Below are positions 28,637-52,534 of a stretch of DNA of 64,000 bases, one piece after another. The stretch's first letter is position 1. Each line of letters opens with the position of its first letter. A model generated the notes under the pieces. That model saw only the letters and a list, made by a program, of their open reading frames with translations. It did not search any database and was not told where the DNA came from. The stretch comes from an uncultured Acidobacteriota bacterium (GTDB taxonomy: Bacteria > Actinomycetota > Acidimicrobiia > Spongiisociales > ZC4RG35). The position numbers were made by a program, and so were the translations under genes. The stretch spans positions 78,125 to 142,124 of the forward strand of contig CAVVCY010000001.1 in assembly GCA_963746905.1 (NCBI GenBank). The letters are read 5' to 3'.

Positions 28637-29125
28637 TCAGGCGAGGAGATCGTCGGCGTACCAGCGCAACGAGCGCTGATATGCCTCGAGCGGCCCGGGG
28701 TTGGTGAGCAGAAGGTCCAGCAACTCTGACACTGCTTCGGGTGCACGGTCGGCGCTGGTCAGCGCCAAGGCGAGGAAAGCTCGCGCCGCTCGGTGTCGAG
28801 GGTTCTCCTCACACACCGCGGTCAGGATTTCCACCGCCTCCTGGTTCTGGCCGAGGTTGCGAAGGGTGCTCGCGAGTTGGATGCGGGCTCTCAGCCGCTC
28901 GTCCTCGTCCAAACCAGCGGCAAGGGCGGCCCGGTAAGGCGCGACCGCCTCTTCTTCCCTTCCCGCCGAGTCATAGGCGCCCGCCAGGTGAAGGGTCACC
29001 CTCGGGTTCTCGGGATGTCGATCAGCCAGGTCGATGAAGTGATCGATGGCGTCCTGGTACCGCTCTTCGTCGAGCAACCGGTCGCCGGCTTCGAGGGAGG
29101 CCTCCAATGCTTGCGGATCGACCAT
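28637..29125 (-). CDS. Small tetratricopeptide-repeat protein
   Basis: ORF 28637..29455; only the part from ATG 29125 (MVDPQALEASLEAGDRLLDEERYQDAIDHF) looks coding. 3-4 TPR units. Confidence 0.7.
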   Translation of the reverse strand: MVDPQALEASLEAGDRLLDEERYQDAIDHFIDLADRHPENPRVTLHLAGAYDSAGREEEAVAPYRAALAAGLDEDERLRARIQLASTLRNLGQNQEAVEILTAVCEENPRHRAARAFLALALTSADRAPEAVSELLDLLLTNPGPLEAYQRSLRWYADDLLA

Positions 29126-29172
29126 GGATCGACTGTACCGCTGACGTGCGGGGCCTTTGAATAGGGCTGCCC

Positions 29173-29475
29173 TCAGCTGCGGTGGATCGAACCGTCGAAC
29201 GGGGTAGATCTCAGGGCCAGTTCGGCTCGATGCTCGGTGATGGCCTGGAGCCGGTGGGCGCGTTGCTCCGCAGTCATTTGAAGACGCCTTGCATGGATCG
29301 ACGGCTCGAGTCTGGTGATGTTCGAGTCGACGACTCGTGCTGGATCCGCGCGATCGGCGCTTAGCCCGAGCCCGATGCCGAGGGCCAGGACCAGAGCGGC
29401 AACTCCGGCTCCGATGGCCCGCGACCGGCCTCTGGATTGGGGTGCCCTCGGCCAACCAACGACACTCGTGGACAT
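29173..29475 (-). CDS. Small membrane-anchored hypothetical protein
   Basis: 100 aa. Strong GAGGAGGAAG RBS. Basic N-terminus followed by TM helix IGAGVAALVLALGIGLGL. Confidence 0.5.
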   Translation of the reverse strand: MSTSVVGWPRAPQSRGRSRAIGAGVAALVLALGIGLGLSADRADPARVVDSNITRLEPSIHARRLQMTAEQRAHRLQAITEHRAELALRSTPFDGSIHRS

Positions 29476-31867: not shown

Positions 31868-32428
31868 ATGGATTTTTCGCATTACAGCGGGCAACCCGTC
31901 GATATGGCAGTCGATCTGGTGAACACACTCGACGCCGCCAGCGGCGAAGAGAAGATGGTTACTCCGACCGACGTCGCCCGGTTCATCGAGGGCTATGACA
32001 ACGCCGACTGGTGCCGGCCTGGCTGGGAGCCGACCGAGCGCGACCTCCACGAAGTTCGGGCCCTTCGATCACGGCTCCGAGATGCGTTCGAAACCGATGA
32101 CCAGGAAGTGGCGGCTGCCGTACTCAATGGAATCCTCTCAGACGTGCATGCGGTGCCGAGACTCAGCGTTCACGGAGTTGGCCCTCATCTCCATTTCGAG
32201 TCCGAGGACGGAAGCCCGGCCCGCTGGCTCGGGGCGATCACGGCGATGGGTCTCTCCGTGGCCATGATCGAAGGCGGCTTTGAGCGGTTTGGGACCTGCG
32301 CTTCCGTCACCTGTGATGACGTCTTCGTAGACACCTCGCGCAATCACTCGAGACTTCATTGTTCGGGTAAATGCACCACCCGGGAGAACGTGGCTGCCCA
32401 CCGCGCTCGACAGCGCGAACAGGACTGA
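31868..32428 (+). CDS. CGNR zinc-finger (ABATE) domain protein
   Basis: C-terminal CASVTCDDVFVDTSRNHSRLHCSGKCTTRENVAAHRARQ. Start at ATG 31868. Divergent from the EamA gene, a common pairing. Confidence 0.85.
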   Translation: MDFSHYSGQPVDMAVDLVNTLDAASGEEKMVTPTDVARFIEGYDNADWCRPGWEPTERDLHEVRALRSRLRDAFETDDQEVAAAVLNGILSDVHAVPRLSVHGVGPHLHFESEDGSPARWLGAITAMGLSVAMIEGGFERFGTCASVTCDDVFVDTSRNHSRLHCSGKCTTRENVAAHRARQREQD

Positions 32429-32488
32429 CCTCGAGCAGACGTCTCGTGTTCGACAAGGCTCTTAAGATCTGAGCCTCCCTGTTGGGAG

Positions 32489-33817
32489 TCAGGGCAGCGT
32501 CACCGAGTTGCCCGTAGCGGTGTCGACTACTTGTCCTCCCGCTTCGACGTGAAGTGAATCCTCGTTTGCGCCAGGTGTGATCTGGAAGGTCAGACCCGGC
32601 GCATTTGTGTACTGAGGGGTGAGAGACTTTCCCGAAACATAGAGCGAACTTGCCACCGCGGTGGCAAACGACGAGCCGCTCCAGACAAATGCCTGGCTTG
32701 GATTGCCGACGTTGACAATGTTGGAACCCGGCACGACATTTCCATTGGTCCAATCTCTTGGCGGCGCCGCCTTTGGATTGTTCGACGTGTCCCACACCGT
32801 CTCCACGCCAGCCAAATCGGCCGCTCCGACCCCCGTCACTTCGTCGAAGGCTGCTGGAAAGAACGTCTGTGTGACTTCGTCGTTGCCCCCGGCTGCGAAC
32901 ACCGGAGCATTTGGGAACTTGGTGAGCCACTGACTGATGGCGAGTTGCATCGTGAGCATGTTGGCCTCGCAGTCGTAGCCACCCAGCGAGATGTTGAGAG
33001 CATGTATCGGGATTCCGGTTTCCTCATGACGAGTAATCAGCCGGGCGATGGCTTCGAAGACGTGGAGCTCGCTGGTCGGTTGGATCGTCTGGTCGAGATC
33101 TCCGTGACCGGCTTCCACTCTCATCTTGCCAACGTCTGCCTCACGGGCTTTGACCATGGAAACCCTGTAACTAGGGGCGACTTGGCGGATGATGCCTGCG
33201 ACAAATGTCCCGTGACTTGGAGGATCTTCTCCGGTCTGCTGCTCCACGTCGATGGTGTCATGGACCACTCCGTCGCTTAGCCACTCTGGACCCTCTGCGA
33301 TGATTCCCGTGTCGACGACTCCGACGGTGTTGTCATCTCCAGGTTCGACATCACTCATTGGGTTGGTGGTTAGAGCAATCGCATCGGTGCCAGGGGCGAA
33401 CTTGATGTGGTTGGCGAGACCAATGGTTTGGATCGGCGCCGCAGTGAATCCGGCATCCACCAAGTCGGTGGCCCGCGCCAATGGGTCATCTTCTCCGACG
33501 TCGACGAAGCCGAGTATTTCATCGATGGCAGCGCCGGCATTCAACATTGATTGGAAGTCAGGCTGGTCGTCTGTGACATGCTCGATCGAAGTTGCGTCGA
33601 GAATCGAAGCGGCTCCGATGTTTGCGCCTGGAATTCCGAGCTGATTTGCAGCCTGGTCGGCCGTTTCGGCCGCTGTTGACCCCTCCTGAGGAGCGACGGC
33701 TACAAAGTTACTGAGGTAGAAGCATGGGAAATCTTCGAGTAACGAACTCGATGTGGTTGACGAGTCTGCACTACCTCCACAGCTGGCAATCGACAAAGAG
33801 ACCGAAAGAAAGATCAA
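32489..33817 (-). CDS. S8 (subtilisin) family serine peptidase, lipoprotein
   Basis: Catalytic triad contexts VGVVDTGI (Asp), SHGTFVAGII (His), SGSSFATAVAS (Ser). Lipobox SIASCGG. The n-region of the signal peptide appears to sit in another frame from ATG 33852. Confidence 0.85.
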   Translation of the reverse strand: MIFLSVSLSIASCGGSADSSTTSSSLLEDFPCFYLSNFVAVAPQEGSTAAETADQAANQLGIPGANIGAASILDATSIEHVTDDQPDFQSMLNAGAAIDEILGFVDVGEDDPLARATDLVDAGFTAAPIQTIGLANHIKFAPGTDAIALTTNPMSDVEPGDDNTVGVVDTGIIAEGPEWLSDGVVHDTIDVEQQTGEDPPSHGTFVAGIIRQVAPSYRVSMVKAREADVGKMRVEAGHGDLDQTIQPTSELHVFEAIARLITRHEETGIPIHALNISLGGYDCEANMLTMQLAISQWLTKFPNAPVFAAGGNDEVTQTFFPAAFDEVTGVGAADLAGVETVWDTSNNPKAAPPRDWTNGNVVPGSNIVNVGNPSQAFVWSGSSFATAVASSLYVSGKSLTPQYTNAPGLTFQITPGANEDSLHVEAGGQVVDTATGNSVTLP

Positions 33818-33910
33818 GACCAGTCGACGCGTGCTCGATGATTCACTCCCATGGCGATCCGGACCCCGACGACGAGAACACCGCTCCGCTTAAGTTCTGA
33901 AACATAATCT

Positions 33911-36524
33911 TTGGGAGAGAGGGGTGTGGGCTTGAGTTCCAGCGATTCTGAGAGGGGTCTCGTTGAGTTGGCCAGGACCGACCCGCGCTCGGCACTGACC
34001 GCAGGGGCAGAACTTCTCGGCAGCATAAGTCATGACGAGCACGCGGATCGATCGCTGGTCCTGCGGGCCCTTGGAATTGCGGCGCGAGGTGGGTCGACCC
34101 TGAGCGAAGCAATCAGCTTTGGCAGCGAAGCCGTTACGGAAGCGGAGCTGAGTGGCGAGAACGACCTGATTGCTGAGGCCTTGATGACCCTCGCTGGATC
34201 TATGGCCCTTTCGGGCGACAATGACCGCGCCCTGGCATTGTTGGAACGAGCGGGCAGGGTCGCATCAGGCCGCGTGGCTGCCCAGATCGCTTTCCAAAAG
34301 GGCTCGGTCTTACTTCGTCTGGGAGAAGCAGGCCCAGCGTTGGACTGCTACGACCTTTCTCTCAGGTTTTTCAAGCGGCATCCTGATCCTGTATTCGAAG
34401 CGATGATTCTCAACAATCGGGGGATGATTCATCTTCGGGGCGGCAAGACCTCAAGAGCGACCGATGATCTGACTAGAGCTCGGACCACATACGACAATCT
34501 TGGCTACTGGTTTGAGGTCGCCGCCGTCGATCACAACCTTGGCCTAGCCGCTGCCATGGTGGGCGACATTCCGCAAGCGCTGAATCTGCTCGACGACAGT
34601 GAGCAACGCCTGAGTGATCTCTTGGGATCGGCCGCCGAGATCCAGGTGAGCCGGATCGAAGTGTTGTTGTCGGCTGGTCTCTTTCGCGAAGCGTTCGGCC
34701 TCGCTGCCGAGATCGGCCCGACATCTGCACGCGGCAGGGCTGGGAGAGGATGAGGCTGAGGCCCGCTCGCTGGCGCCCAGGCGGCCTTGCTCGCCGGGGA
34801 TCTCGATTCCGCCCTGCGATGGGGCGACATCGCCGCCGAGATGTTCGAGCAACAGCGGCGTGAAGTCTGGGCAGCCATTGCTCGGCTCGTGGGGATTCGA
34901 GCCCAGCACGAGGCAGGGCTGATCAACGCTGAATTGATGTTCGAGGCGAGACGGATTGCCGAGGTTCTCGAGTCCGAGACAACAGATGATCCCGGCCTTC
35001 AACGCTCGGCTTGACGCGGGTCGAATGGGGTTGGAGATGGGTCTGGACCGATCGGGCCGTGAGGACTTGACGCGGGTGGCTGGACAACGAACCGGCACCG
35101 GTGGAGATCCGGCTTCAAGCGTGGCTGGCGGCCGCGTTGCTTCGACTGTCCACGGGAGATCGACACAGGCGCGGACGCTGCGGCTCGCGCCGGCATGCGC
35201 CTACTCGACGACTACCAAGCCGCCATGGGTGCGACCGACATCCGGAACGGGGTCGAGAGACACGGAGCTGCCTTGGGAGAACTCGGCCTCCGGCTCGCCT
35301 TGGAGTCGGCCACTCCGCGATCGTGCATTCGCGTGGATGGAGCGGACCAGGGCACGGGCCCTCCGTCATCGACCGGTGACACCGTCGGACGACCGTGCGC
35401 AGGCGGACGATCTCGCCGAGTTACGCCGGGTGTCCGCCGAGCTGAGATCGGCAGAGGGCGACGCGGCCCGGGACTTGAGGCGGCACGAGCGCGATCTCCA
35501 GGATTCGGTCCGCAATCGGGGACGGCTTGCTCGAGGTGAAGGCTCAAGGGCTTCGATGACCGTCAACGACTTGGTCAAAGCGCTTGGGGATCGGACTCTG
35601 GTCGAGTTCGCCTCATTGGATGACCGTCTGTGGGCACTCACCGTGAGAAACGGTCGATTCTCGATTAGGCGGAGCTGGCGTCGGAACCAGCCGTTCTCGG
35701 CGAGTTGGAGAGCCTTCGATTCACGATGCGCCGTCTCGCCCGGGGACGGGGGAGTGCGTCCACCGATCTGGCTCGGCAGGTGTCGGCTCACCTCGACGAG
35801 ATGCTCTTTGGCAAGCTCAATGTCGGATCGGGACCTTTGGTGATCGTTCCCACACCCGTTCTCCATTCAATGCCCTGGGCGGCATTGCCCACCAGCCAGG
35901 GGCGAGCCTTCACGGTCGCTCCCTCAGCCGAGCTTTGGTGGCGCGCCGCACGACGAAGACGGCGATCAGGATCCGTTGTGGTTGCCGCCGGGCCCGACCT
36001 GGCTCACGCAGGTCTCGAGGCTTCGGAGGTGGCCGACATCTATTCGGACGTGGAGCCGATCGACTCCGACGGTGCGACGGTCGAGCGGCTCAGAACGGTC
36101 TTGGAACGCGCCACGACAGGACACATCGCTTGTCATGCCAGGTTCGAGGTCGACAACCCCATGTTCTCGTCGTTGCGCCTGGCAGATGGCGATCTCAACG
36201 TGTACGACTTGGAAAGGATGAGTCGGGTGCCCGACGTGGTTGTGCTGTCGGCCTGTGACTCGGGCTTCAGCGAGGCCCATCCTGGCGAAGAGTTGATGGG
36301 TCTGAGCTCAGCGCTGCTCAGCCTTGGGGCGAAATCGTTGGTCGCCAGCGTGGGACTGGTGCCCGACTCGGAGGCGACCCGAGAGCTCATGGTTGGCCTC
36401 CATCGAGGGCTCATCTCCGGTCTTGGACCAGCGGAAGCTCTTAAACCGAGCCCGAGGGGCGATCAGGGACACCAAAGCGGGGTACGTCGCGGCGGCGTCG
36501 TTTGTCTGCATCGGAGCAGGCTGA
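33911..36524 (+). pseudogene. TPR-CHAT (caspase-like) protease gene broken by about 8 apparent frameshifts
   Basis: N-terminal TPR-like repeats (33911..34715). CHAT His/Cys dyad contexts GHIACHARF and VVVLSACDSG (ORF 35705..36571). Typical C-terminus AASFVCIGAG stops at 36524 in another frame. Fragments appear as ORFs 33911..34753, 34787..35014, 34956..35843, 35101..35379, 35195..35539, 35705..36571 and 36324..36524. Confidence 0.7.
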
Positions 36525-36579
36525 AGAAACATTCAAATCTGATGTATCACGGGCTCAGGTCGGCCCTCTGATCCTTACC

Positions 36580-37173
36580 ATGACCACGATGGCTGAAGCC
36601 ACTACACACGGCGAGCTCTTGGCTCGTGCGGCCCGTGGCGACCAGGCCGCCTGGAATGCTCTGGTCGAGACCTTCGGGCAGATGGTGTGGTCGATCGCGA
36701 GGAGCTTCCGACTCGACGATGCCTCGGCCAAGGACGTCACGCAGACGGTCTGGCTCAAGCTGGTCGAGAATTGCGATCGCATCCAGGATCCCGAGCGTCT
36801 CCCCGGATGGTTGGCCACGACCTGCCGCCGCGAGGCGCTTCGAGTCGCCCGATTGCGTGAGCGCACCATTCCCACCGAGTTCGAGTACGACCTGGAGGAC
36901 CCGTCGCCTTCTCTCGAGTCCCTCCTCGTCGAGGATGAAGAGGTGCGTGGAGTGGTGACGGCTTTCTCATCGCTGGGCGAGGATTGCCAGCAGCTCTTGC
37001 GCCTCCTGGCGACCGATCCACCACTCAGCTACGAGGAAATCTCTGAAATCACCGGTCGACCGGTGGGGAGCCTCGGTCCAACCCGTGCCCGGTGCATCGG
37101 AAGACTCAAGTCGGCAATGGGTATCAGCGTCGACGGTGGCGGCTCTATTGACCAAGGAGGAGATGCAAAGTGA
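36580..37173 (+). CDS. ECF sigma-70 family factor
   Basis: ORF 36502..37173; start at ATG 36580. Region 2 (AWNALVETFGQMVWSIARSFRLDDASAKDVTQTVWLKLVE) and region 4 (LSYEEISEITGRPVGSLGPTRARCIGRLK). Confidence 0.8.
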   Translation: MTTMAEATTHGELLARAARGDQAAWNALVETFGQMVWSIARSFRLDDASAKDVTQTVWLKLVENCDRIQDPERLPGWLATTCRREALRVARLRERTIPTEFEYDLEDPSPSLESLLVEDEEVRGVVTAFSSLGEDCQQLLRLLATDPPLSYEEISEITGRPVGSLGPTRARCIGRLKSAMGISVDGGGSIDQGGDAK

Positions 37174-37650
37174 GCGAAAACAGGGATTACACCGAAGCTC
37201 AGCTCATCGAGCTGCTCCGACAAGGTCTCGATTCGACCGACCCCGTGCCGACCGACGTGACCGACTTCGCCATGGCAGCACTCAGCTGGCGCACTATCGA
37301 TGCCGAGCTCGCTGCGATCGCTTTCGATTCTGCAAGTGAAGAGATGCCGGCCGGGGTTCGCGGGTCGGTGACCGATCGAATGCTCTCCTACGAAACGGAA
37401 AGGCTCAGCATCGACATCGAGTATCGCCCCGCCACTCGCGGCTCATCGGCCAGGTCGCACCACCCCAGCCCGCAACAGTCGAGCTTCATCACTCGAAGGG
37501 CACCTCGACCACCGTGACCGACGATCTAGGTCGCTTCAGCTTCGAAGACGTCGAGCCCGGCCCGGTGAGCATCGTGTGCACATCGCAGGGCGTAGACCCC
37601 GATGTCATCAAGACCGAGTGGACCGATTCTCTGACCTCAACCATGCGGTC
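37170..37650 (+). pseudogene. Sigma-coupled soluble partner protein (C-terminal Ig-like/CarboxypepD_reg-like segment), frameshifted; true 3' end unclear
   Basis: GTGA overlap with the sigma stop. Frame 0 reads to IEYRPATR. Coding-like sequence then continues in frame 2 (RLIGQVAPPQPATVELHHSKGTSTTVTDDLGRFSFEDVEPGPVSIVC...IKTEW). No TM segment and no ZAS motif. Confidence 0.5.
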
Positions 37651-37938
37651 TAGCTGGTATCTAGCCTGTCCTTCGGACTCTCTCCCTCCTAGGAGTCGTC
37701 ACAGTGACGACGAGGAGAAAGAGGCAGATGATGACCGACATGTCCCCGCACCAGAGCCCGAAATGTGGCATGGCGCCGGGCATGGACCAGGAGACCGATC
37801 GCAATGGTCGACCACCCGGTCGATAGGTGGCTGGGCTCCCGGTCGAAGGAACCGGGAATCAAGCAGAGCCACCGCCGTCGACGGCAATCCCCCTGGCTCA
37901 CCGCCCGCCCCGCCATCTAGCTCTCGAGGCTCGAAAGC

Positions 37939-50702: not shown

Positions 50703-51608
50703 TCACATCTCAAAGCCGGCGACCGATTCCAGCGCCGAGCCTCCCTGACCACCGCGTTTGTTCAACGCCCGGAACAGGAGCCCGGCCGCCGCCACCGCCC
50801 CGATGGTGATCACCATGAGCACTGTCGCCAGAGCATTTAGAGATGGGGGTGGCGCGGCCCGAGCGCCCGCATAGAGCTGGACCGGGATGGTTACTGTGTC
50901 GGCCCCTCCCAGCAGGAACTGGCTGATCACGAAGTCGTCGATGGAAATCGCGAAAACGATGGCGAAGCTGGCCAACAGCGCCGGGGCGAGCAGTGGCAAT
51001 AGAACGCGCCGCATCGCCTGAAACTGGGAGGCGCCCAGGTCCATGGCGGCCTCCTCGTAGTCCCTGCCGATGGCGAACAGCCTTCCTCGCACGATGATGA
51101 CCACGAACGAGATCGAAAACGTGACGTGGCCCAAGGCCTGAGTCCAGGTTCCGAAGGGGACGAAGTCGTAAACCTTGTCGAACACCAAGAACAAGGCGAC
51201 GCCCATCACGATCTCGGGAGTCACCAGTGGGATGAGCATGAGCAGATTGGAGGCCCTCACTCCGCGCCCGCGCCATCTGGCCAGGCCGATGGCAAGGGCG
51301 ACTCCGATCGGGGTGGCCACCAGCATGGTTATGAGGGCCAGGCGAACGCTCTGCGCCAGAGCGAATCGCAGCGACTGGTCGTAAAGCACTGATTCGGCGG
51401 CGGCGGGGTCGCCGACGTACCAGCGTGTGGAGAATCCCTGCCATGTGCTCCTCGAGCGACCGGAGTTGAAGGAGAAGAGCACAGCGATCGCCACCGGGAT
51501 CGTCGACCAGAGGACATAGAGCATGGTCACCAACGGCAGGAACCTCGACTTGCCCCACGGGTTGCTGACAGCCGACCTGATCGACCTGGTGGCACCTCGT
51601 GTGCTCAT
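50703..51608 (-). CDS. ABC transporter permease (PotC-like)
   Basis: ORF 50703..51881. Start at ATG 51608 (MSTRGATRS) gives an ATGA overlap with the upstream permease. 6 TM segments and an EAA-like loop (YEEAAMDLGASQFQAMRRVLLP). Confidence 0.85.
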   Translation of the reverse strand: MSTRGATRSIRSAVSNPWGKSRFLPLVTMLYVLWSTIPVAIAVLFSFNSGRSRSTWQGFSTRWYVGDPAAAESVLYDQSLRFALAQSVRLALITMLVATPIGVALAIGLARWRGRGVRASNLLMLIPLVTPEIVMGVALFLVFDKVYDFVPFGTWTQALGHVTFSISFVVIIVRGRLFAIGRDYEEAAMDLGASQFQAMRRVLLPLLAPALLASFAIVFAISIDDFVISQFLLGGADTVTIPVQLYAGARAAPPPSLNALATVLMVITIGAVAAAGLLFRALNKRGGQGGSALESVAGFEM

Positions 51609-52534
51609 TCCCGGGCTGCCTCGGAGGAGCGGTTGATCGACCGCAGGTAGTACAGCATCAGGCCTCCGACGAAGATCATCAAGACGATGGTCAACGCTGC
51701 TCCGATCGCTCCACCGCCGGTGGTTTGATTTATGAACTGATCGATCGTGTTTCCGTACATGCGAGTGCGTGGGGAGCCCGAGAGGAGGTTCGGCGTGTAG
51801 TAGTCGCCGAACATCGGGAGCATGATGATCACCAGGCCTCCGAGCACTCCGTTCCGTGACATTGGCCAGGTGACCCGCCAAAAGGTTTGCGACGGTCTTG
51901 CCCCGAGGTCGCGCGCAGCCTCGAGGGTGGCGTCATCGATCCGATCCAGGGCGGCAAACAAAGGGAGGATGAAGAACGGGATGTATCCGTAGACCAGCCC
52001 GAGGATGACCACGAAATGATTTCCCGCGAGCCAGTCGGGCGGGTTGGTGATGCCGAACGCCTCGAGCCATTTGTTGATCTGGCCGTCTGGGCTCAGAAGG
52101 TTCACCCAGGACATCATCCTCATCAGGTAGTTGATCCAGAAGGGGGCCAGAATGAGCAAGAGCCACAGCCAGCGCCAACGACCTGATTTGCGTGACACGA
52201 AGTAGGCCACCGGATAGCCGATCATCAGGCAAAGAAGCGAAGAAATGAACACATAGGCCAGGGTCCTGAGAGCGATGACCCCCAACTGGCCGCCGAACAG
52301 GTCGGAGAACACCTTCGTGAAAACGGTGGGGTCCCAGTAGATCGGGTTCCACTCGGGGTTGGCTCGTTGCAACACCGGGTCGAGTTGGCCCATTGCCACG
52401 GCGAATATGGCGTAGAACGGAATCAGGAAGAACAGCACCAGCCAGCCGACTCCGGGGAGAGCGAAGCCGGGCCACACCCAACGTCTCTGCCCGACGGTGT
52501 CGTACTCGGCGCCTGAGGCGAGGTTGGTGGGCAT
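51605..52534 (-). CDS. ABC transporter permease (PotB-like)
   Basis: 309 aa, 6 TM segments, EAA loop LEAARDLGARPSQTFWRVTWP. Confidence 0.85.
   Translation of the reverse strand: MPTNLASGAEYDTVGQRRWVWPGFALPGVGWLVLFFLIPFYAIFAVAMGQLDPVLQRANPEWNPIYWDPTVFTKVFSDLFGGQLGVIALRTLAYVFISSLLCLMIGYPVAYFVSRKSGRWRWLWLLLILAPFWINYLMRMMSWVNLLSPDGQINKWLEAFGITNPPDWLAGNHFVVILGLVYGYIPFFILPLFAALDRIDDATLEAARDLGARPSQTFWRVTWPMSRNGVLGGLVIIMLPMFGDYYTPNLLSGSPRTRMYGNTIDQFINQTTGGGAIGAALTIVLMIFVGGLMLYYLRSINRSSEAARE

Follow-up and report, generated by a model that had tools for sequence, protein, structure and literature searches.

Proteolytic removal of an anti-sigma factor is a classical way of freeing a sigma factor of the extracytoplasmic function (ECF) type, exemplified by DegS/RseP-RseA-RpoE and by the mycobacterial RseA or RsdA, which are degraded by Clp, and in Actinobacteria soluble anti-sigma factors that are degraded in the cytoplasm are known. 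To our knowledge, control of an ECF sigma factor by a protein combining tetratricopeptide repeats (TPR) with a CHAT domain is known only from the accessory module of type III-E CRISPR systems and from one myxobacterial membrane anti-sigma factor. In the former, an ECF-like sigma factor is bound and inhibited by the soluble protein Csx30; Csx29 of Craspase cleaves Csx30 in a linker, and the cleavage relieves the inhibition (PMC10028731). The latter, DdvA of Myxococcus xanthus, is the TPR-CHAT anti-sigma factor of the ECF sigma factor DdvS; it is a single transmembrane protein whose zinc-bound N-terminal domain is cytoplasmic and whose TPR-CHAT part is periplasmic, and CHAT proteolysis has been proposed as the release step, followed by cleavage by RseP (PMC11506125). 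The locus described here lies in a 64,000-nucleotide stretch of contig CAVVCY010000001.1 (assembly GCA_963746905.1), hereafter the window, and encodes an ECF sigma factor and a co-translated partner protein beside a TPR-CHAT protease, caspase/separase-like in kind, and an S8 subtilase. This set of genes is a genuine module of Actinomycetota that has not been described before, and we infer that it works like the Csx29-Csx30-sigma and DdvA-DdvS systems; it is, however, a member of neither.

The likeness to Craspase lies both in gene content, as each encodes a cytoplasmic TPR-CHAT protein beside an ECF-like sigma factor and a soluble protein without a transmembrane helix or zinc motif, and in structure, Csx29 being the best structural match of the module's CHAT domain. 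The module is, however, not a type III-E Craspase system. Its neighbourhoods contain no cas genes, Cas7-11 and csx31 included, and Rfam and tandem-repeat scans over the window found no CRISPR RNAs and no arrays, which means that there is no CRISPR in the window. On the module's CHAT protein the Csx29 model NF041237 scores 19 bits (cut-off 300), no relationship between the partner and Csx30 is detectable, the S8 subtilase and a small basic protein are extra components, and the activating signal cannot be a target RNA bound by Cas7-11. With DdvA-DdvS the module shares an ECF sigma factor that is accompanied by a TPR-CHAT-bearing controller, and DdvA is the second-best structural match. In contrast to DdvA, the TPR-CHAT protein of the module is separate and cytoplasmic, without an N-terminal transmembrane segment, signal peptide or zinc domain, and the candidate anti-sigma factor is a separate protein of 154 residues that lacks the zinc motif. 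Classical anti-sigma proteolysis is alike in that a protease removes the anti-sigma factor and frees the ECF sigma factor, whereas its proteases are of other families and the module has neither a membrane relay nor a class I four-helix domain in the partner. An initial annotation of the locus had stated that no mechanistic description of such a module was known, which was too strong, as Csx29-Csx30-CASP-sigma (PMC10028731) and DdvA-DdvS (PMC11506125) had been overlooked. Literature searches for the module itself recovered the Craspase and DdvA papers alone, and the main text of the ECF classification of Casas-Pastor 2021 (PMC7826278) makes no mention of CHAT, S8 or CarboxypepD.

The sigma factor, its partner and two proteases form a module

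All four genes were found where the initial annotation had placed them, together with the motifs that it had named (Table 1). In the TPR-CHAT gene, Pfam matches TPR_12 at 33911-34753 and CHAT (PF12770, E=7e-32) at 35705-36571, and the contexts of the catalytic dyad read GHIACHA and LSACDSG. The protein belongs to the CHAT family of clan CD, with H140/H144 and C184 invariant in 52 sequences, and its intact orthologues are 853-912 residues long. The AlphaFold2 (AF2) model of the window's CHAT domain has a predicted local distance difference test score (pLDDT) of 91.7, and its ranking of PDB structures is headed by Craspase Csx29 (E=1.8e-7, TMq 0.65-0.68), followed by DdvA (E=2.4e-5) and then separase. 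The subtilase likewise is a true member of Peptidase_S8 (PF00082, E=1.7e-10, 41 bits against a cut-off of 21.8); the contexts VVDTGI, HGTFVAG, GGN and GSSFATA are present along with a lipobox, IASC, and the D, H, N and S residues are invariant in 15 orthologues. Judged by this conservation both proteases look active, since with a mean identity of no more than 33-43% neither the CHAT His/Cys nor the S8 Asp/His/Asn/Ser residues vary. The S8 protein is not a mycosin, as it scores 51 bits on TIGR03921 (cut-off 279) and there are no ESX genes nearby. Its open reading frame (ORF) spans 32489-33817 on the minus strand (442 aa, TTG start), and the original start is probably ATG 33852 or GTG 33846 (MGVNHRARV...), in a frame that differs from that of the signal-peptide h-region.

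The sigma factor falls into the ECF (group 4) superfamily, with 70-73 bits on the sigma70-ECF model TIGR02937 over model positions 1-165 (cut-off 42.9). Of the Pfam models only region 2 is recognized (Sigma70_r2, E=9e-11), with no match to the region 4 models, and the NCBIfam models SigK, SigE, SigC, ShbA, BldN, RpoE and SigW give 24-51 bits against cut-offs of 126-290. The closest solved structure is the E. coli RpoE (E=7e-5). The protein is 98.5% identical to the sigma factor of locus L003, one of the loci compared below under such handles, and among hundreds of proteins from Acidimicrobiia the identity is 70-98%; ATG 36589 is the likelier candidate for the conserved start and gives 194 residues. 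The TPR-CHAT proteins reach a maximum Kyte-Doolittle hydropathy over 19 residues (KD19) of 1.3-1.9, located within the CHAT domain, and have no N-terminal transmembrane segment or signal peptide, and in the partner the maximum KD19 is at most 1.25 and no HxxxCxxC motif is present, which bears out the earlier description of a protein without a transmembrane helix or zinc motif. Since there is no membrane span in the sigma factor, the partner or the CHAT protein, any control of the sigma factor must be cytoplasmic.

The loci for comparison were collected by look-ups from the sigma and the CHAT sides and by a partner-seeded scan limited to one genome per species, which contributed 39 loci. In about 33 of the approximately 41 informative loci the S8, TPR-CHAT, sigma and partner genes all lie no more than 10 kb apart, in at least five gene orders and in several classes; the initial annotation had named missing synteny in other genomes as grounds for refutation, and these the survey removes. 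In order A, exemplified by the window, S8 is divergent from a co-directional series of CHAT, sigma and partner, while in order A' (L025) all four genes are co-directional. In order B the sigma and partner genes run towards a convergent CHAT gene, from which S8 in turn is divergent. Order C has CHAT divergent from S8, sigma and partner, with S8 directly upstream of sigma in one operon, order D (Trebonia) consists of S8, sigma, partner and CHAT in succession, and in L038 the partner precedes the sigma factor. Outside the Acidimicrobiia, full modules were found in Trebonia (L043), in a Mycobacteriales metagenome-assembled genome (MAG; L047), in L049 and in the cultured Nonomuraea gerenzanensis (L050), all four with unrelated flanks. 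The last of these corresponds to NZ_LT559118.1 7,900,897-7,919,343 and holds the whole module in order C at about positions 4099-9447 of L050, or about 7,905,000-7,910,343 of the replicon; its replicon of 11.85 Mb is filed as a 'plasmid' and is almost unannotated in the collection, and its CHAT gene reads in two overlapping frames. In Allorhizocola (L037) a contig edge cuts the locus and S8, sigma and partner are visible, and the Thermoleophilia and Gaiellaceae loci hold partial sets, in which sigma and partner are accompanied either by S8 or by a CHAT fragment.

Synteny that is kept through at least five rearrangements, three classes of Actinomycetota (Acidimicrobiia, Thermoleophilia and Actinomycetes) and different contexts supports a functional linkage of the genes. 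Adjacency could also be an inherited neighbourhood without any functional coupling, considering that most loci are from Acidimicrobiia and partner-seeded, and hence not independent, and that each of the sub-units described below also occurs alone. Such an explanation is very improbable, however, because the association outlasts inversions and transpositions of the sub-units (orders A-D, L038) and recurs in the unrelated surroundings of L043, L047, L049 and L050.

The module consists of two sub-units, a core of sigma and partner, to which a small basic protein is added in Acidimicrobiia, and an accessory pair of CHAT and S8. The division is seen most directly in L027 and L007, which have the same flanks, with L027 lacking exactly the CHAT/S8 pair. 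In every Acidimicrobiia locus, L027 included, the small basic ORF follows the partner at a distance of approximately 95 nt; it has no internal stops in 21 loci, and its substitutions are skewed to the third codon position (4709/3707/5661 for positions 1 to 3). The encoded protein is very basic, carries the motif PV.RWLG.R...HR...RPA[IV] and has no match in Pfam or NCBIfam.

The S8 proteins come in two types that are predicted to differ in location. Those of orders A and B carry a textbook lipoprotein signal (M-R-x-R, h-region, [AS]C) followed by a Thr/Ser-rich linker, while those of order C, L049 and Nonomuraea have no signal peptide and no hydrophobic N-terminus. This second type, without signal peptide or lipobox (L008, L028, L029, L031, L034, L049 and L050), is predicted to be cytoplasmic and occurs chiefly in loci whose S8 gene immediately precedes sigma. 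The earlier description of S8 as exported thus holds for the lipoprotein type of module and not for the second one, and any model of the module has to accommodate S8 proteins on the one side of the membrane or the other. The S8 gene of the window has a GC content of 57.3%, compared to a window mean of 62.2% (standard deviation 1.6 for stretches of gene size), and belongs to the lowest 0.2% of the window, where no other gene-sized stretch is poorer in GC; the initial annotation had the direction of this difference right and the value elsewhere, about 65%, too high. Low GC as a general feature of S8 was rejected, as the gene is below its flanks in just 10 of 16 loci.

The S8 gene and the TPR half of the CHAT gene are a swapped cassette

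The S8 gene together with the TPR half of the CHAT gene constitutes a swapped hypervariable cassette, which is a new finding. Over 15 intact loci, the mean pairwise identity declines from 0.71 in the sigma factor to 0.55 in the partner, 0.50 in the CHAT domain, 0.39 in the TPR part and 0.33 in S8. The clearest case is that of L005 and L006, where the flanking DNA is 97-98%, the sigma factor and partner 100% and the CHAT domain 98% identical, whereas the TPR part is 51% and S8 35% identical. The homology of the two DNAs ends at the junction of TPR and CHAT and resumes past the S8 stop, so that the swapped block comprises 9301-12544 in L005 and 9301-12438 in L006, and the S8 of L005 is closer to that of L016 (67%) than to that of L006. 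The converse is seen in L002 and L003, where it is the CHAT domain that has diverged, S8 and TPR being almost the same. The window and L003 share 98% identity in the sigma factor, about 87% in the partner, 63% in the C-terminal part of CHAT, 45% in TPR and 34% in S8, with flanks that are 89% identical in DNA. A block replacement is also seen between window positions 32489-35167 and L002/L003. The divergence of TPR and that of S8 are correlated even when the divergence of sigma is taken into account (partial rank r=0.70).

Allele swapping of this kind could mark a stand-alone conflict or recognition system, directed at phages or serving kin or pherotype recognition, in which the S8-TPR cassette would give the specificity and the sigma factor would act as an alarm, as a Craspase-like switch without CRISPR. 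The near-identity of L005 and L006 outside the cassette, the sharp breakpoints at the TPR/CHAT junction and the S8 stop with the kinship of the L005 and L016 subtilases, the TPR-S8 correlation and the presence or absence of CHAT/S8 between the identical flanks of L007 and L027 all speak for it, as do weak PADLOC matches of the CHAT domain to BovA and Csx29. We nevertheless regard it as unlikely. PADLOC-DB v2 matched no system in the locus, giving a weak BovA hit (21 bits) and TPR on the CHAT protein and nothing on sigma, partner or S8, and a search with the partner found no match in the phage collection and a single one in the plasmid collection, the 11.85-Mb Nonomuraea replicon, and so no association with mobile elements. 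Moreover, the chromosomal position of the module is conserved with housekeeping genes adjoining, the sigma factor is highly conserved (70-98%) and no toxin-like effector is evident. Equally doubtful in our estimate is the more specific proposal that the S8 and TPR cassette defines interchangeable types, be it for self/non-self discrimination, pherotypes or phage sensing, and that these would gate the ECF sigma factor via CHAT cleavage of a soluble two-helix/beta-sandwich anti-sigma factor of a new class.

Signalling of the RRNPP type, in which a TPR receptor responds to a secreted peptide matured by subtilisin-like proteases, offers a further parallel that serves as a lead only. There as here, a cytoplasmic TPR sensor would co-diversify with an adjacent exported component in pherotype-like cassettes. 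The differences are that no propeptide gene was identified in the module, that its TPR part is fused to a protease and not to a DNA-binding or phosphatase domain, and that one type of S8 has no signal peptide.

The partner protein and a putative protease-gated switch

The partner gene begins, as the initial annotation had it, with a GTG that overlaps the sigma stop (GTGA); this GTG, at 37170, lies within AAGTGA and is preceded by AAGGAGG 9 nt upstream, and the 4-nt overlap of sigma stop and partner start is found in most loci. The end of the gene had been put at 37650, which the corrected reading frame moves to 37634. A profile search for the family retrieved 2463 cluster representatives at E<=1e-10 (clusters of approximately 50% identity), of which 293 reach E<=1e-30; nearly all of the best 150 members listed are 145-170 residues long, and those looked up bear either no name or 'hypothetical'. 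The partner is not a class I (ASD) or zinc-binding (ZAS) anti-sigma factor, since it has no Pfam or NCBIfam match to either, no H/C motif and no hydrophobic span; a match to CarboxypepD_reg in Pfam is sub-threshold. In the AF2 model (mean pLDDT 77.5), residues 9-22 and 28-55 are helical, residues 49-67 are disordered and residues 70-153 form a beta-sandwich predicted with confidence, which makes two predicted N-terminal helices compared to the four-helix domain of class I anti-sigma factors. In the PDB, the partner has no relative by fold or sequence, the generic Ig/FN3-like beta-sandwich matches being not significant.

The partner evolves at approximately 1.5 times the rate of the sigma factor, and these relative rates together with the start/stop overlap make the two look like a sigma/anti-sigma pair. 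An anti-sigma role fits the coupling to sigma, the universal adjacency to it, the faster rate and the two-helix N-terminus, and we infer from sequence and model that the partner represents an anti-sigma factor of a new, cytoplasmic kind. The linker, with a pLDDT below 50, holds the invariant residues D53, S54, V63 and R64, and R64 is still invariant in a broader paired set of 29 sequences. Clan CD proteases have specificity for Arg or Asp, and the invariant Arg within the disordered linker of the model is consequently a plausible P1 site for such a protease.

Taken together, the data suggest a protease-gated sigma switch in which the TPR-CHAT protein would cleave the new soluble anti-sigma factor and the specificity would reside in the swapped TPR/S8 cassette, a reading that we advance tentatively and rate as somewhat short of probable. 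First, the two N-terminal helices of the partner would hold the sigma factor, with the beta-sandwich acting as a handle. Next, the hypervariable TPR domain would read a signal that in one manner or another corresponds to the S8 allele inherited with it, and the CHAT domain would then cut the partner in the conserved disordered linker (...YDS...GVR, with the invariant Arg64). Finally, the freed sigma factor would transcribe its regulon. 'Proteolysis-gated sigma control' had been suggested in the initial annotation, and the structural comparison, in which the CHAT model best matches Csx29 and DdvA, makes it plausible.

The two proteases could instead be outputs. Sigma and partner would then be an ordinary sigma/anti-sigma switch, inactivated in some other way, with S8 and TPR-CHAT as sigma-regulated effectors, for example in cell-envelope remodelling, in nutrient scavenging or as a death/defence effector pair. 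This would be in line with the existence of sigma and partner alone, with the order C loci, where the position of S8 directly upstream of sigma in the same operon is what an autoregulated operon would lead one to expect, and with the prediction that S8 is a secreted lipoprotein in many loci. The sequences upstream of the genes weigh on the other side. A conserved 48-nt element occurs once per locus and stands upstream of sigma in every gene order, and it is not repeated before S8 or CHAT. The CHAT gene has a different conserved motif of its own, GAAAC(C)TA(G/A)TC, found 12-58 nt upstream of the CHAT start in at least 12 loci of different gene orders (with the GAAAC(C)TAGTC form among others in L006, L013, L015, L016, L020, L022, L029, L031 and L034), which may be the -10 region of a CHAT promoter or an operator. 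The nearest structural relatives of the CHAT domain, furthermore, act on anti-sigma factors or are anti-sigma factors themselves, and the swapping of the TPR/S8 cassette would be left unexplained. Proteases as mere outputs therefore seem improbable to us. The 48-nt element has no consensus RNA fold and, by eye, does not fit the standard -35/-10 spacing; it includes a conserved ATG, which in several loci is not in the sigma frame. A shared ECF promoter for the module was dropped as a candidate, as the element is single in each locus and its spacing non-standard.

Several observations also weigh against the protease-gated switch. The absence of the 48-nt element upstream of S8 or CHAT means that no shared regulon signal was detected, the switch leaves the role of S8 unexplained, the predicted location of which varies between module types, and no similarity of the partner could be detected, be it to Csx30 or to an anti-sigma family. 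The sigma and partner genes are present without CHAT and S8 in L027, L035, L042 and Vallicoccus soli (L048, partner WP_119950003.1), so that CHAT is not needed for the pair to work. Conversely, Dactylosporangium roseum CP073721.1 (L051, 6391-8467) has a divergent pair, made up of an S8 truncated to 208 aa and a short, 488-aa CHAT protein, without sigma or partner; it gives the impression of a remnant, or of a protease pair put to independent use.

State of the window copy and neighbouring features

The module copy of the window contains about 11 frame disruptions within 33.8-37.8 kb, in the CHAT gene, the partner, the small ORF and probably the 5' end of S8, while the sigma gene is without defect. 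They were located by comparison with the intact L006, where CHAT has 857 residues and the partner 154, and with L002-L004 as near relatives. Relative to intact orthologues, the TPR-CHAT frame changes near 34990, 35080, 35320, 35670 and 36445 and has in-frame TGA codons at 34751 and 34757; in the partner, one base is missing at 37439 and one is extra at 37626, which destroys the stop, and the small basic ORF is shifted near 37765. In a codon-usage frame scan, too, the window's hot spot for intragenic frame switches coincided with the module stretch. The copy may be non-functional. Intact orthologues are present in Illumina MAGs and in the cultured Nonomuraea gerenzanensis.

The disruptions are either an artefact of the long-read consensus, which appears somewhat the more probable, or recent decay. 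A decaying remnant, with CHAT, partner and small ORF as pseudogenes and the sigma factor, perhaps also S8, still functional, is a realistic though lesser possibility. It would account for the concentration of the disruptions, given that some 50 other genes of the window are open and that the flanking 2.5 kb have only 2 gaps relative to related loci, and the loss of an anti-sigma factor would render its protease dispensable. On the other hand, the source and its closest relatives are long-read metagenome assemblies (contig_N, 'MFD'), near-identical contigs have breaks in other genes (sigma in L017, an amine oxidase in L008), and the Illumina MAG copies are all intact. The shifts, moreover, form compensating pairs, each shifted segment still scores strongly on its family profile and the window copy has kept its catalytic residues throughout, a picture in keeping with a consensus of mixed strains across a hypervariable region. 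An exact-pattern scan of metagenome contigs for an independent copy of the window strain, aimed at the 36445 frameshift, found no match. Outside the module, same-strand ORFs overlap in different frames at 28637-29455 and 29173-29475, and at 50703-51881 and 51605-52534, all on the minus strand, and could be further frameshifts.

Table 1 Positions of the module genes, conserved upstream elements and related features in the window and in other loci.
Feature	Sequence	Position	Strand	Remarks
S8 subtilase, lipoprotein type	window	32489..33852	-	Pfam Peptidase_S8, conserved triad
Motif GAAAC(C)TA(G/A)TC	window	33899..33909	+	S8/CHAT intergenic region, just upstream of the CHAT start
TPR-CHAT gene	window	33911..36524	+	about 870 codons; TPR about 33911-35600; CHAT about 35700-36521
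48-nt element GTAT[CT]..CCCTCT..TCC(G/T)TAC[CG]ATG	window	36535..36582	+	conserved, directly upstream of sigma
Sigma factor, ECF-type, intact	window	36580..37173	+	197 aa from ATG 36580; TIGR02937
Partner, putative soluble anti-sigma factor	window	37170..37634	+	about 154 aa in relatives; no assigned family
Small basic ORF	window	37731..37920	+	61-66 aa in relatives; fifth conserved core member; frameshift near 37765
Small basic ORF	L003	8147-8335		
Small basic ORF	L007	8318-8503		
Second canonical ECF sigma factor	L001	12346-12927		
Second canonical ECF sigma factor	L005	4413-5737		
Second canonical ECF sigma factor	L010	13209-13802		
Second canonical ECF sigma factor	L011	7009-7599		

Some relatives carry a second, canonical ECF sigma factor (Sigma70_ECF, r2 and r4_2) 2-3 kb from the module, which is absent from the window; in L005 it is followed by a 248-aa protein of no assigned family. 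A Phage_holin_4_2 gene (120-124 aa) is located between the ABATE/zf-CGNR gene and S8 in relatives (L002 2476-2838, L006 12466-12840), at a place where the window has a 60-bp gap alone (32428-32489). The closest relatives of the window are MAGs named Acidimicrobiia. The MFD long-read relatives (L009, L010, L012, L016, L017, L024, L028 and L029) are titled 'uncultured Acidobacteriota bacterium', and as all other relatives of these proteins are labelled Acidimicrobiia, the labelling of the MFD records is probably inconsistent.

The swapping of alleles in the S8/TPR cassette indicates that the sensor side is under strong selection, diversifying or balancing, which is unusual for a regulatory locus of such housekeeping appearance. 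If the cassette does define interchangeable types, the module would be a free-standing, CRISPR-independent relative of the Craspase switch, widespread in soil Actinomycetota and equipped with a dedicated second protease. Should the protease-gated switch prove true, a CRISPR-free chromosomal version of it in soil Actinomycetota would make caspase-like proteases a general way to switch sigma factors, and a large protein family, the approximately 2,500 clusters at 50% identity and E<=1e-10 to which the partner belongs, would be defined as anti-sigma factors. The cultured carrier Nonomuraea gerenzanensis makes this hypothesis directly testable.

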